From Candidatus Methylomirabilota bacterium (GTDB taxonomy: Bacteria; Methylomirabilota; Methylomirabilia; Rokubacteriales; CSP1-6): DNA of 64,000 nucleotides. The DNA lies in assembly GCA_035315345.1 (NCBI GenBank), contig DATFYA010000187.1:3436-67435 (forward strand). Reading direction: 5' to 3'. The notes below the pieces were generated by a model. The model was not told where the DNA came from. It saw nothing but the letters and a program-made list of their open reading frames with translations, and ran no database searches. A program made the translations under genes and the position numbers. This document shows positions 17,695-64,000 of the stretch, piece after piece (the first letter of the stretch is position 1; every line of letters starts with the position of its first letter).

Positions 17695-18558
17695 ATGCAA
17701 CGACTGATGGGACTCGTGATGGCGCTGGCGCTGCTCGTGGCCGGGATGTCCCCGGCGCTGGCCCAGCAGAAGAGCACGCTGGACAAGATCGGGGAGACGG
17801 GCACGCTCACCATCGGCACCCGCACCGGCTCGCCGCCCTTCGGCTACGTGAACTCGAAGAACGAGTGGGTGGGCTTCTCGATCGACCTGGTGGAGGAATT
17901 GATCAAGCCCGCGCTGGAGAAGAAGCTCGGCAAGCCGATCAAGGTGGAGAAGAAGGAGAGCACCCCGCCCACCCGCATTCCGCTGATCTCCTCGGGCGCG
18001 GTGGACCTCATCGCCGAGACCATGACCGACACCCGGACCCGCCGCGACAGCGTGGACTTCTCGCTCACGTTCTTCGTGACCGGCGCGCAATTCCTGGTCA
18101 AGAAGGGGAGCCCGATCAAGGGCATCAAGAACATCGACGGCAAGCGCATCGCGGCCCAGCAGGGCTCGACCAACGCGCGCATCATCCGGGAGAAGGCGTC
18201 CAAGGCGGTGCTGCGCGAGTTCCCGGACCAGCCCGCCGCCTTCCAGGCGCTGGTGCAGGGGCAGGTGGACGCCTACACCAACGACGGCATCCAGCTCGCA
18301 GGGCTCAAGGCCAAGTCGCCGAACCCGGCGCAGTGGGAGATCGTCGGCGACATGTTCTCCTACGAGCCCTACGGGATGGCGCTGCGCAAGGGTGACTCCG
18401 ACTTCCGCAACGTCGTCAATGCCGGGCTGATGGAGGGCATCGAGTCGGGCAAGTTCTTCGAGATCTACGAGAAGTGGTTCGGGCCCAACGGCGAGCTGCC
18501 GTACCCGATGTCTCCGCAGGTGCGCTCGTTCATGCTGCTGCAGGTCGTCCCCAAGTAG
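17695..18558 (+). CDS. polar amino acid ABC transporter substrate-binding protein
   Basis: AAGGAGG RBS 7 nt upstream. Signal peptide MQRLMGLVMALALLVAGMSPALA. Family 3 SBP pattern (LTIGTRTGSPPFGY). Confidence 0.85.
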   Translation: MQRLMGLVMALALLVAGMSPALAQQKSTLDKIGETGTLTIGTRTGSPPFGYVNSKNEWVGFSIDLVEELIKPALEKKLGKPIKVEKKESTPPTRIPLISSGAVDLIAETMTDTRTRRDSVDFSLTFFVTGAQFLVKKGSPIKGIKNIDGKRIAAQQGSTNARIIREKASKAVLREFPDQPAAFQALVQGQVDAYTNDGIQLAGLKAKSPNPAQWEIVGDMFSYEPYGMALRKGDSDFRNVVNAGLMEGIESGKFFEIYEKWFGPNGELPYPMSPQVRSFMLLQVVPK

Positions 18559-18565
18559 TCTCGTT

Positions 18566-18662
18566 CCCTCTCCCCGGAGGGGAGAGGGCAGGGTGAGGGG
18601 CTGGCGCCGGCGTGAGTCCGCCCACCCTCACCCCGGCCCTCTCCCGGGAAGGGAGAGGGAGG
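18566..18662. repeat. REP-like element pair in inverted orientation (hairpin CCCTCTCCCC-N3-GGGGAGAGGG plus GGGTGAGGGG box)
   Basis: Left copy at 18566-18600 and an inverted copy at 18621-18659, in the spacer between the SBP and permease genes. The same motif family recurs at 62588-62680 and 63696-63835. Confidence 0.8.
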
Positions 18663-18669
18663 TGGGCGC

Positions 18670-19392
18670 GTGAACTACAAGTTCAACTGGTCGGTGCTGT
18701 GGACCGGCGAGTCCGGTCAGTGGCTGCTGAGCGGGCTCATCACCACGCTCGAGCTGTCGGTGGCCGCCTGGCTGCTCGCGGTGACCCTCGGTGTCGTCTC
18801 CGGCGCGCTGCGCACGGTGCGGATGTGGCCGCTCCGCGCCGCCGCGACCCTCTACGTCGAATTCTTCCGGAACGTTCCGCTGCTGGTCTGGATGTTCTTC
18901 TGGTACTTCGCGGTGCCGCCGTTGCTGCCTCAGGCGGGGCAGGACTTCCTGTTCGCGCACGGGCTCGAGTTCTGGGCCGCGGTCTGCGCGCTGGGCGTGT
19001 ACAGCGGCGCCCGCTTCTCCGAGGTGCTGCGCTCGGGCATCCAGGCGATCCCCAGGACGCAGCTCGAGGCCTCGGTGGCCTCGGGCCTGACCACGTTCCA
19101 GGCCTATCGGTACGTGATCCTGCCGGTGGCGCTGCGGCTCATCATCCCGCCCGGCACCAACGAGTCGCTGAACCTGCTCAAGAACTCCTCGGTGGCCCTG
19201 ACCATCAGCGTGGCCGAGCTGACCTTCCAGACGCGCCAGATCGAGACCTACACCGCCAGGGCCATCGAGGCCCTGACCGCGGGCACCCTGATCTACCTGG
19301 TCCTGTGCGTCTCGATCGCCATTTTCATGTCGTGGGTGGAGCGGCGCACCGCGATCCCGGGCCTCATCGTGGGCGGGCGGCCGCGGCGCTAG
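18670..19392 (+). CDS. polar amino acid ABC transporter permease
   Basis: Track ORF (GTG start). Hydrophobic, HisM/GlnP-like (YSGARFSEVLRSGIQAIPRTQLEA). Confidence 0.85.
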   Translation: MNYKFNWSVLWTGESGQWLLSGLITTLELSVAAWLLAVTLGVVSGALRTVRMWPLRAAATLYVEFFRNVPLLVWMFFWYFAVPPLLPQAGQDFLFAHGLEFWAAVCALGVYSGARFSEVLRSGIQAIPRTQLEASVASGLTTFQAYRYVILPVALRLIIPPGTNESLNLLKNSSVALTISVAELTFQTRQIETYTARAIEALTAGTLIYLVLCVSIAIFMSWVERRTAIPGLIVGGRPRR

Positions 19393-61897: not shown

Positions 61898-61940
61898 CCG
61901 CAGGCACCGTATCTGGTAGGGCTCCTTCCGAGGGCCCCAC

Positions 61941-61982
61941 TGTATTTTGTTGTTGCAATATACTAAACAAATGACGTGTAAT
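61941..61982 (+). promoter_or_regulatory. AT-rich promoter/operator island upstream of imuA (candidate SOS operator)
   Basis: By my count, only 11 G/C in 42 nt. TTGCAA (61953-58), 18-nt spacer, TGTAAT (61977-82). Dyads TTTGTT-N14-AACAAA (61946-71) and TTGTT-N11-AACAA overlap the -35 box. Confidence 0.35.
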
Positions 61983-62013: not shown

Positions 62014-62706
62014 ATGGCTATCCCGATCGAGTCCTCACCTCCGCCAGGGTGGGATCGTGAAGGGATCGACGGCCTGCTCGGCCTGTTCCCGCCGGGTCGG
62101 CTCAGCGAGATCGTCGGCCCCCGATCCTCCGGCGGCAGCAGCCTGCTCCTGGCCCTCATTGCCCGGATCACGACTCGCGGGCAGGTGGCCTACGTGGACG
62201 GGATGGATGCGCTCGATCCCGCCTCCGCCGCGACGGCCGGCGTCGATCTCTCCGCGCTGCTCTGGGTGAAGTGTGCAGGCCGTCTCCGCACGGCGCTGAG
62301 CGCCGCCGATCTGCTCGCCCGTTGTCCCGGCTTCTCGCTGATCGTCCTCGACCTCGACGACCTCGGGCCCGTGCCTTTCGCCGCTCAGATCCGGCTGCAG
62401 CGGGCGGTGGAAGACCGCGACGCGGCATTGGTCGTCCATACTGCACGTCATCGCGAGGGCAGCCCCGCCTCGCTGGTCGTGACGACTCGGCGTCTGGCTC
62501 CCCGCTGGAGGGGACTGCGTCCGCTCACCCGTCTCGGTGGGCTTCGCTCCGAGGTCTCCATCGCCCGCTCCCGCCTCCACCCCTCCTCCCTCTCCCCCCT
62601 GGGGAGAGGGCAGGGTGAGGGGGCTGAGGGTGAGGGGGCTGAGGGTGAGGGGGCTGGAGGTGAGAGAGGTGAGGGGCAGACCTGGGCCCTCGACTGGACC
62701 CTATGA
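62014..62706 (+). CDS. imuA: translesion-synthesis-associated RecA/SulA-like protein ImuA
   Basis: Track ORF. GRLSEIVGPRSSGGSSLLLALIA degenerate P-loop region, followed directly by imuB (ATGA overlap). The C-terminal tail GRGQGEGAEGEGAEGEGAGGERGEG is repeat-derived. Confidence 0.78.
   Translation: MAIPIESSPPPGWDREGIDGLLGLFPPGRLSEIVGPRSSGGSSLLLALIARITTRGQVAYVDGMDALDPASAATAGVDLSALLWVKCAGRLRTALSAADLLARCPGFSLIVLDLDDLGPVPFAAQIRLQRAVEDRDAALVVHTARHREGSPASLVVTTRRLAPRWRGLRPLTRLGGLRSEVSIARSRLHPSSLSPLGRGQGEGAEGEGAEGEGAGGERGEGQTWALDWTL
62588..62680. repeat. REP-like hairpin plus 15-bp tandem repeats embedded in the imuA 3' coding region
   Basis: CCCTCTCCCC-CCT-GGGGAGAGGG at 62588-62610. This is followed by GGGTGAGGGGGCTGA repeated at 62613, 62628 and 62643, then degenerate copies. 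Confidence 0.8.
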
Positions 62707-64000
62707 CCCGCATCGCCTGTCTGCTCGCCGCGACCGATGCCGAGCCCGATGGGTCCGTTCACCGCATGCTGCTCCAGGTCGCGCTGTCCCATTCGCCCCG
62801 CGTGGAAGACGGCGGCATCGGGCGTGTGTATCTCGACGCGTCGGGATTGCATGGCCTGTTCGGTGACGAGCCCCGGCTCGCCGCACGTCTCCGCGACATG
62901 ACCGCGGCCGCCGGGGTGACGGCACGTGTGGGCATCGCGGGGAGCCGGCTCGCGGCCCTGGCCGCCGCACGCCTGGGGCCCGGCGCCGCCGTCGTCGATC
63001 CGGATGGCGACGCGGCCTACCTGGCCGTCGCGCCGCTCTCCCTGCTCGAGCTGTCGAATGAGCTGTCGGCCCGGCTATCCCGCTGGGGTCTCCGCACGCT
63101 CGGGGAGCTGGCCGCCCTGCCGACCGCGGGGCTGTTCGAGCGGCTGGGAGGAGAAGGGGTGCGGCTGCAGCGGTTGGTGCGCGGCGACGACCCGCGCCCG
63201 CTGGTCTCCTGGAAGCCGGCGCTGCTCTTCGAGGAATCGGTCCAGTGCGAGTGGGGCATGGAGACGCTCCCGCCGGCGGTCGAGCGCCTGGGCGAGCTGG
63301 CCGCGCGAGTGTGCGCGCGCCTCGGCGAGCGCGGGCTCGCGGCCGACGGCTTCGAATGGGCCTGCCGCCTCGACGGCGGCCACCTCCACGAGGGCGCGCT
63401 CGCTCCCGCGGTGCCCATGACCGATGGCGCCGCCGTCGCGGCATTGCTCCGCCTCGCGCTCGAGGCGCGTCCGCCCCGCGGTATCGTCCGGGGCCTCACG
63501 CTTCGTGCCCGTCCCGCGCGGATCACGGCGATGCAGGAATCGCTCACCGATCGCTCCCGCCCCAGTCCGCGCCTCCTCGCGGCCACCCTGAATCGTTTGG
63601 TGGGCCTGGTGGGCGCGGACAGCATAGGCGCTCCGGCGCTGCTCGACAGCCATCGCCCCGACGCCGTGGGCCTGGGCGCCTATGCTCCTCCTCCTTTCTC
63701 TCTCTCTTCCCTCCGGGACGCGGGCGCGGCTTCTCCCTCTCCCCTCCGGGCCGCCGACGCGCCTTCTCGCTCTCCCCTCCGGGACGCGGGCGCGCCTCCT
63801 CCCTCTCCCCTCCGGGGAGAGGGTAGGGTGAGGGGTATCGGCGCCCTCGCCCTGCGCCGTCTCCGTCCGCCGGCTCCGGCCGCGGTCACGCTCACCTCGG
63901 GCCGTCCCGTGGCCTTGCGCTCGAGCCGGCTCAGCGGACGCATCGTGGCCGGTGCCGGCCCGTGGCGCTCCTCGGGCGAGTGGTGGAGCAAGCGGCCGTG
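62703..64000 (+). CDS. imuB: Y-family polymerase-like protein ImuB (3' end outside window)
   Basis: Not in the ORF track because there is no stop in the window. My frame-0 translation from ATG 62703 reads MTRIACLLA...RVYLDASGLHGLFG...LSRWGLRTLGELAALP...GPWRSSGEWWS, the typical ImuB pattern. Confidence 0.85.
   Translation, partial: MTRIACLLAATDAEPDGSVHRMLLQVALSHSPRVEDGGIGRVYLDASGLHGLFGDEPRLAARLRDMTAAAGVTARVGIAGSRLAALAAARLGPGAAVVDPDGDAAYLAVAPLSLLELSNELSARLSRWGLRTLGELAALPTAGLFERLGGEGVRLQRLVRGDDPRPLVSWKPALLFEESVQCEWGMETLPPAVERLGELAARVCARLGERGLAADGFEWACRLDGGHLHEGALAPAVPMTDGAAVAALLRLALEARPPRGIVRGLTLRARPARITAMQESLTDRSRPSPRLLAATLNRLVGLVGADSIGAPALLDSHRPDAVGLGAYAPPPFSLSSLRDAGAASPSPLRAADAPSRSPLRDAGAPPPSPLRGEGRVRGIGALALRRLRPPAPAAVTLTSGRPVALRSSRLSGRIVAGAGPWRSSGEWWSKRP
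63696..63835. repeat. 33-bp tandem repeats (about 3.5 copies) ending in a REP-like hairpin, embedded in-frame in imuB
   Basis: Units at 63696-63730, 63731-63763 and 63764-63796. The terminal unit contains CCCTCTCCCC-TCC-GGGGAGAGGG-TAGGGTGAGGGG (63801-63835). Confidence 0.8.

Follow-up and report, generated by a model that had tools for sequence, protein, structure and literature searches.

How does a tandem repeat come to lie in frame in the middle of a DNA-damage-tolerance gene? The question is raised by a 64,000-nucleotide (nt) stretch of contig DATFYA010000187.1 from a Candidatus Methylomirabilota bacterium, taken at its full length and hereafter called the window, in which the imuB gene of an imuA-imuB mutagenesis cassette carries a 33-bp tandem array in the part that encodes the linker of ImuB (63699 to 63816, + strand). 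Tandem Repeats Finder returned 3.6 copies with 85% matches, no indels, and a score of 180, and a gap-free repeat search found in-register copies at 63699, 63732, and 63765 (87 to 92% identity, n = 3); an allelic series among strains, described below, supports the same feature. The imuB frame is open through the array, with no stop codon or frameshift, and the encoded peptide is FSLSSLRDAGAASPSPLRAADAPSRSPLRDAGAPPPSPLRGEGRVRG. We consider it highly likely that the array is an in-frame variable-number tandem repeat (VNTR) that grew from a motif of the BoxC/PIT/TM_ECO type in a length-tolerant ImuB linker, with a motif core that is conserved at the nucleotide level.

The 3′ end of the array is a complete hairpin followed by a box, CCCTCTCCCC-TCC-GGGGAGAGGG-T-AGGGTGAGGGG (63801 to 63835, + strand), made up of a pyrimidine arm (63801 to 63810), the loop TCC, a purine arm (63814 to 63823), a single T, and the box itself (63825 to 63835). 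This triplex-motif core is translated as PSPLRGEGRVRG, and the hairpin was modeled at −27.1 kcal/mol over positions 63795 to 63840. Each repeat unit consists of the pyrimidine arm and loop (TCTCCCTCTCCCC-TCC), then GGGACGCGGG, and then a 10-nt spacer, where GGGACGCGGG is the right arm GGGGAGAGGG with three changes. The upstream units are hairpin copies that have degenerated through decay of the right arm. An original prediction, made from the letters of the window alone, had described in-frame 33-bp repeats in the ImuB linker derived from a dispersed palindromic element, and its array, frame, peptide, and terminal hairpin with box were all reproduced here, as was the derivation of the units, which keep the arm and loop. 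Its repeat period of 33 was likewise returned by Tandem Repeats Finder, whereas the unit lengths of 35, 33, 33, and 39 nt are its own partition of the array.

The same element recurs elsewhere in the window. A second triplex-motif core lies in the C-terminal tail of imuA (62588 to 62622, + strand), in another frame that reads LSPLGRGQGEG and 30 to 100 nt 5′ of the overlapping imuB start; a 41-nt stretch at the imuB hairpin is 93% identical to positions 62582 to 62622. Here it is the third-strand box that is expanded, as a 15-bp in-frame array of 4.3 copies of AGGGTGAGGGGGCTG (62612 to 62675, + strand; Tandem Repeats Finder). Both genes of the cassette therefore hold expansions of one element, as had been proposed, and in both the units are arranged head to tail, have a length that is a multiple of 3, and lie inside open reading frames (ORFs). 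Two further copies form an intergenic inverted doublet (18566 to 18659), with a + copy at 18566 to 18600 and a − copy at 18625 to 18659. The doublet lies in a 111-nt spacer that separates an upstream ORF (stop at 18558) from a downstream ORF (start at 18670), whose products we read, from sequence features, as an ABC-transporter substrate-binding protein and a permease. Folded as a single strand, the doublet forms one long stem (−76 kcal/mol). Across the window, the hairpin pattern has 4 matches against 0.01 expected, and the hairpin arm plus box has 3 against 0.00 expected.

Motifs of the BoxC/PIT/TM_ECO type have been known in Escherichia coli since the 1990s. In sequence, the window element is this G/C-rich intrastrand-triplex motif, in a variant with a 2-nt second loop. 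Holder et al. 2015 (PMC4666352) give the TM_ECO pattern as CCCTCNCCC-N3-6-GGGNGAGGG-N3-GGGNGAGGG, with the earlier names BoxC and PIT (potential intrastrand triplex), and list CCCTCGCCCCTCCGGGGAGAGGGTTAGGGTGAGGGG in their Table 1 for E. coli K-12, from which the imuB copy, CCCTCTCCCCTCCGGGGAGAGGGTAGGGTGAGGGG, differs by one arm base and one loop base. The 9-nt pyrimidine block CCCTCNCCC occurs as CCCTCTCCC at 63801, 62588, and 18566 and on the minus strand at 18651 to 18659. It is followed by the loop CTCCG, which is 5 nt by the paper's counting and falls within the published 3 to 6 nt, and then by GGGAGAGGG in the place of GGGNGAGGG. The third block, GGGNGAGGG as the mirror of the second, is present as GGGTGAGGG(G) in all three window copies. 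The second loop, exactly 3 nt in the pattern, is 2 nt (CA or TA) in the + copies in imuA, in imuB, and at 18566, and the strict published pattern is matched by − copies alone, for example, that at 18625 to 18659. When reversed, the box differs from the purine arm at a single A/T position (9 of 10 match) and would permit 10 purine-motif triads, a match that points to the box as the third strand of a purine-motif intramolecular triplex. An oligonucleotide of the motif forms a stable triplex in vitro, and a published census lists the TM_ECO pattern solely for proteobacterial genomes (PMC4666352).

The element had at first been labeled a REP family. That label is apt insofar as it denotes a dispersed, normally extragenic palindrome, but the family is that of BoxC/PIT/TM_ECO, and we reject membership among RAYT-type REPs given the missing GT[AG]G head and the low copy number. 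Nunvar and colleagues are said to have described, in 2010, a conserved 5′ GT[AG]G tetranucleotide at the base of the REP palindrome. Neither GTAG nor GTGG was found as a head at the window element, which begins CCCTC. Nor is it a high-copy extragenic repeat, with about 0.1 hairpins per 10 kb outside the cassette (570 kb) and most copies intragenic. No RAYT was noticed, in the course of work that included no systematic search and no scan of the window ORFs for PF01797, and a search of Rfam gave sub-threshold matches to microRNA-like hairpins and no family.

We compared the array with those of related loci, using more than 120 ImuB orthologues from a protein database (67 to 100% identity) and 80 loci with DNA from a metagenome scan (669 kb). 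The sequences used for comparison all come from metagenome assemblies, and metagenome-assembled genomes (MAGs) of Methylomirabilota/Rokubacteria are the nearest relatives at the genome level. The 90%-identity cluster of the window ImuB has members of 442, 453, 464, and 475 residues, and protein P0003 has 431. Proteins of 431, 442, 464, and 475 amino acids (aa) are identical at 319 to 320 of 320 N-terminal and 79 to 80 of 80 C-terminal residues, and these near-identical ImuBs carry 0, 1, 3, or 4 extra 11-residue units, in which the order of internal unit variants differs. The corresponding linker DNA is shortest in L084 (84 nt), followed by L004 (117 nt), the window (183 nt), and L085 (216 nt). 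Between the imuA start and the linker (1.65 kb), these strains have 0 to 1 mismatches, and the only other difference is one missing 15-bp imuA unit in L085. Many independent contigs carry the 464-aa or the 442-aa allele. The 33-bp array is a true in-frame VNTR, and whole units, of 33 bp in imuB and 15 bp in imuA, change much faster than point substitutions accumulate. Repeat-mediated length variation had been raised as a possibility in the original prediction, and the strain comparison bears it out.

The units fall in a part of the protein whose length is free to vary. Of the imuB gene (62703 to 64000, + strand), which codes for a catalytically inactive homologue of Y-family polymerases, the first 432 of 464 codons lie in the window, and the gene start overlaps the stop of imuA (62014 to 62706, + strand; RecA-like, 230 aa) in ATGA. 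Pfam assigns IMS (Y-family) to the imuB ORF and RecA to the ORF at 62014 to 62706, and an identical 464-aa protein (P0001) is named "protein ImuB" by JGI. A sequence search of the PDB matched DinB/Pol IV in the N-terminal half only and returned no ImuB structure. A gene of more than 707 aa starts 8 nt after imuB in L085, an otherwise identical strain, and from its N-terminus, MFVELHARSAFSFLE, its product is taken to be DnaE2. The window protein thus has the Y-family fold, the C-terminal ImuB-C segment, and the imuA and putative dnaE2 neighbors of an ImuB. Its linker (residues ~328 to 380; 63684 to 63842, + strand) lies between a RecA-NT-like motif and the ImuB-C domain and is hypervariable. 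It is bounded by the invariant blocks ...LLD(S/T)HRPDA..L..Y327 and L384-RRLRPP, ranges from 22 to 62 aa among orthologues, and is among the longest of them in the window. An AlphaFold2 model is confident for residues 1 to 275, with a predicted local distance difference test score below 50 for residues 276 to 447 and of 24 to 30 in the linker. Since low confidence after residue 275 also covers the conserved C domain, the model is weakly compatible with linker disorder without discriminating it. The orthologue alignment and the model scores are in keeping with the flexible linker that had been expected at this site.

Mycobacterial ImuB is ordered as clamp motif, RecA-NT, linker (388 to 421 in M. 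smegmatis), and ImuB-C, and its clamp motif, QLPLW, lies just after the polymerase-like fold (PMC11791113). The window protein resembles it in its order of modules, with QESLTD (residues 278 to 283), SPRLLAATLNRLVGLVGADSIG, the variable linker, and a C domain containing GPWRSSGEWW, and on this match the repeat occupies the linker between RecA-NT and ImuB-C. The M. smegmatis linker is not described as a repeat (PMC11791113), whereas that of the window is built from a DNA repeat element. A similar order is seen among distant ImuBs, sampled as 149 representatives of 50%-identity clusters. These have a low-complexity spacer of ~20 to 90 residues at the linker position, preceded by Q[AG][DE]LF (QESLTD in the window) and then by a helix-like segment, ...LxxxLxRLxxLVGxxxxG; the peptide signature of the element is missing from them, with one doubtful exception. 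We considered and rejected PSPL[R/W/G]G in the linker as a beta-clamp-binding motif. The clamp position is that of QESLTD, upstream of the RecA-NT-like helix, and the R/W/G variation tracks the first base of the hairpin loop.

The residence of the element in the cassette is not peculiar to the window. The imuB linker carries at least one hairpin in 69 of 83 loci. Of the 64 loci whose sequence extends far enough upstream, 54 carry one in the imuA tail, in every case ahead of the conserved C-terminal WTLDWTL. Different parts of the motif are expanded in different lineages: the pyrimidine arm as 33-bp or 30-bp units, (SPSPLRxAGAx)n, in the window clade, L059, and others, and the third-strand box as 15-bp units, which read (GEKVR)n or (GSRVR)n in imuB and (xQGEG)n in imuA. 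In some lineages a second, inverted copy lies upstream and is translated as HPHPDPLPGRERE, mirroring the intergenic doublet. Taking the window and the loci together (733 kb), there are 148 hairpin sites, of which ~142 are in the imuA tail, the imuB linker, or the imuB-dnaE2 spacer after reassignment of 6 of 12 raw "outside" sites that lie in cassettes of loci without set bounds. The 6 sites outside the cassette are at four loci; the three loci checked for context are intergenic, and the fourth is L018 2605. The density is 8.6 per 10 kb in the cassette versus a raw 0.21 outside it, or ~0.1 after reassignment, which makes the element ~80-fold denser in the cassette than elsewhere. The family is thus scattered at low density, with the cassette as its principal location in these genomes. 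By these counts, the motif has been resident at both sites, the imuB linker and the tail of imuA, for most of the radiation of Methylomirabilota ImuBs.

A further address was observed in one subclade (L025, L027, L031, L035, L037-L039, L047, L049, L061, L069, L073, L077, and L082), where an additional, mostly − copy fills the imuB-dnaE2 spacer (imuB stop +0 to +70), often with tandem 14- to 16-bp repeats of the CCCCTCACC box. The purine arm of these spacer copies, GGGAGAGGG, lies 10 to 13 nt before the dnaE2 ATG, at the Shine-Dalgarno position, and resembles a sequestered Shine-Dalgarno sequence. The imuB-dnaE2 spacer of the window clade is just 8 nt and has no motif copy.

We asked at which level, nucleotide or peptide, the motif is conserved, comparing codons in 48 non-redundant loci that retain it with 60 flanking codons. 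The stem and box codons CCC, TCT, CCC, GGA, GAG, GGC, AGG, GTG, and AGG have a major-codon fraction of 0.96 to 1.00, while invariant residues of the flanks vary synonymously, with a typical fraction of 0.5 to 0.9. The rare codons TCT, GGA, and AGG (twice) are fixed in the motif, and invariant flanking Arg columns use CGN only. The only parts of the motif to vary are the 3-nt loop (L/R/P and R/G/W) and the codon after the box. Furthermore, the peptide encoded by the motif DNA is LSPLGRGQGEG for the imuA copy, PSPLRGEGRVRG for the imuB copy, and PLPGRERE where the copy is inverted. Given the frozen synonymous sites and the different frames, it is the nucleic acid, and not the peptide, that is conserved. 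The pattern that would have spoken against a DNA element, with repeats kept as protein in distant ImuBs and unlike the intergenic element in DNA, was not seen: distant ImuBs lack the motif, and the homologues that carry it keep DNA identity to the intergenic element. The purine arm is the least variable block, with 2 of 45 and 7 of 52 variants against 9 and 13 for the pyrimidine arm, small numbers that fit strand pairing on two faces.

The loops tell of inheritance. The loop of the imuA copy differs from that of the imuB copy in 43 of the 43 genomes having both, and loop variants go with particular linker types among the linkers listed, which together argue for vertical inheritance in place and against homogenization or reinsertion. 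The original prediction had raised the possibility of recombination between the two copies within the cassette, and the 43 differing pairs give it no support. No imuA-imuB deletion or fusion allele was seen in a locus search that required full-length ImuB and would miss such alleles.

How might the array have arisen? It would have grown out of a 10-bp hairpin and its mirror-repeat "third-strand" box, with units gained and lost by slipped-strand mispairing or unequal exchange. The single purine arm could pair with any of several direct copies of the pyrimidine arm, and a stable hairpin, or a triplex or G-quadruplex, might stall replication and favor misalignment. Holder et al. 2015 (PMC4666352) associated local instability with the vicinity of such motifs in E. 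coli. Only multiples of 3 bp would survive because the repeats lie inside a gene, and the protein would tolerate extra units because the linker is free of length constraint.

Several points weigh against this explanation as a whole. The strain comparison draws on metagenome assemblies only, and short-read assemblers can miscount tandem repeats. Unit change is seen by its products, from which we infer the mechanism. The density outside the cassette rests on only ~570 kb. The motif is lost or degraded in L001/L005, L002/L007, L036, L014, and L072, and is thus dispensable. In E. coli, the triplex was not detected in vivo, and earlier work, as far as it is cited in the same paper, found the motif to be without promoter or terminator activity (PMC4666352), which leaves selection on structure without experimental precedent. 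Finally, RNA of the imuB array is no more stable than its dinucleotide shuffles (z = −0.25), nor is that of the imuA array (z = +1.29), and there is no sign in either of unusual extended RNA structure beyond the local hairpin.

G-quadruplex formation is a further structural possibility. The purine arm and box, GGGGAGAGGG-CA-GGGTGAGGGG, form a canonical four-tract G-quadruplex motif on the sense strand (62601 to 62675 and 63814 to 63835), which the 15-bp imuA units extend to more than 10 G-tracts. ViennaRNA with G-quadruplex energies predicts the quadruplex to be preferred only in the imuA array (−55.6 versus −34.8 kcal/mol); in imuB the hairpin wins.

If the core is frozen as nucleic acid, what keeps it there? 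Core conservation may reflect selection on a property of the nucleic acid, a structure or binding site, that is relevant to the cassette, a weaker claim than that of unit gain and loss by slippage or exchange. A stronger version, that the element is kept in the coding sequence of imuA and imuB by selection acting in cis on the mutagenesis cassette, through DNA or mRNA structure or as an obstacle to replication or transcription, strikes us as a minority possibility. One variant would have a DNA or mRNA structure limit or couple the expression of ImuA, ImuB, and DnaE2, and another would have an obstacle tie cassette expression or stability to replication stress. From their positions, the copies in the dnaE2 spacer and in imuA could conceivably act in translational coupling or occlusion; such a role cannot explain the copy in the middle of imuB.

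Somewhat less probable still is that the element is a selfish or neutral resident, a mobile or conversion-prone repeat that recurrently enters the two most permissive spots of the cassette and leaves the arrays as neutral by-products. The uniformity of the element would on this view stem from repeated insertion or from gene conversion by copies elsewhere in the genome, and not from selection at the site. Such a resident would be at home in a linker that tolerates almost any sequence, and the family is dispersed and elsewhere intergenic, with cassette copies that are degraded or lost in several lineages; moreover, the E. coli motif is gained and lost between strains (PMC4666352), and a function for it was not found. 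Against it, the differing loops in all 43 genomes give no sign of exchange, and their association with linker types points the same way. At ~0.1 per 10 kb outside the cassette, independent insertion at the same two codon-level sites in dozens of lineages is improbable, and neither a transposase nor a target duplication was seen.

We give far less credence to selection on the peptide, by which the SPSPLR(D/A)AGA units and PSPLRGEGRVRG would be maintained for docking, modification, or beta-clamp binding. The motif does occur in most orthologues, and the position of the mycobacterial QLPLW just after the polymerase-like fold, together with the occurrence of PSPLWG variants, lends the idea some appeal. 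It is, however, largely refuted by the frozen synonymous sites with their rare codons, by one DNA being read in three frames or orientations, by otherwise identical proteins that differ in unit number, by the occupation of the clamp-motif position by QESLTD, and by distant ImuBs that lack the peptide. Least credible is that short-read assembly of metagenomes produced the differences in unit number by error: all compared sequences are metagenome contigs and tandem repeats are a known weak point of assembly, but the 33 to 132 bp of extra sequence fits within typical reads of 150 nt (an assumed length), the 3-unit and 1-unit alleles are found in 7 and 5 member sequences (JGI, ENA) with different internal unit variants, and the steps are exact multiples of 33 bp in a clean frame.

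Other observations concern the surroundings of the cassette. A conserved AT-rich block, CTGTATTTTGTTGTTGCAATATACTAAACAAATGACGTGTAAT (61940 to 61982 in the window), lies ~30 nt upstream of the imuA start and is strongly conserved, with few changes in nearly all Methylomirabilota loci. It contains CTGTAT...ATACT and probably serves as promoter and operator for the cassette, possibly with a LexA-type box. In L056 (~2890 to 2984), a direct duplication of ~21 nt, with ATAGGTACAGGTCCTCTTCTT present twice, lies between this block and the imuA start codon. In a large subclade (L008-L013, L015-L024, and many others), the gene directly after imuB is not dnaE2 and is an overlapping gene that begins ...VTVLVTDMDNTLFDWLEMWQAAFGAMLERL, starts in a TGATGG overlap, and looks like a HAD-type hydrolase from its sequence (DxDxT). 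Two loci are anomalous. L003 6001-7370 (a Rokubacteria MAG, 59% identity) was set aside as uninterpretable, as its imuB frame breaks inside the linker and the conserved C domain is readable only in another frame; the break reflects either a pseudogene or a sequencing error at homopolymers in the G/C runs. L002 (DATIWG010000035.1), a 286-kb contig with an 84%-identical imuA-imuB of Methylomirabilota type, is labeled as an archaeal "Nitrosotalea sp." and is probably misbinned.

The element family and the kind of polymorphism are already known; what is new is the intragenic, phylum-wide, cassette-specific residence under nucleotide-level constraint. The cassette, in which a phylum of soil bacteria carries the motif in frame in two neighboring genes for DNA-damage tolerance, offers a natural system for asking what the motif does, and strain differences that are essentially whole repeat units adjoining the motif are direct comparative evidence for the proposal that it destabilizes its neighborhood. 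Among otherwise near-identical alleles with open frames, the spacer between RecA-NT and ImuB-C varies by at least 44 residues. Were the role in cis true, it would be the first gene-specific function for a BoxC/PIT motif, and the linkers of the cassette would be evolvable.

Three known systems invite comparison. REP and REPIN elements are likewise short G+C-rich palindromes, dispersed, usually extragenic, and sometimes in inverted doublets, whereas the window element is sparse, has no GT[AG]G head, and has an extra, non-palindromic third block. The array resembles in-frame bacterial VNTRs, such as those of surface-protein repeats, in having a unit that is a multiple of 3, a number that varies between near-identical strains, and an unfolded region as its site. 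Unlike the VNTRs of surface antigens, it lies in a cytoplasmic DNA-damage-tolerance factor and is seeded by, and ends in, a conserved structure-forming element. The closest likeness is to BoxC/PIT/TM_ECO, with a near-identical sequence, the three-block design of CCCTCNCCC, loop, GGGNGAGGG, loop, and GGGNGAGGG, conserved stems and variable loops, and occurrence as single copies or inverted doublets; the "palindromic" TM_ECO pairs of E. coli have the same arrangement as the doublet at 18566 to 18659. Both also have small insertions, deletions, and rearrangements in their immediate surroundings, and in E. coli small local differences between strains are far more numerous at loci with the motif than at controls (PMC4666352). 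The two differ in the second loop, which is 3 nt in the published motif and 2 nt in the + copies of the window. They differ above all in place: E. coli copies are "always located intergenically," without functional association with adjoining genes (PMC4666352), whereas those of Methylomirabilota lie in frame inside imuA and imuB, at the same sites throughout the phylum.

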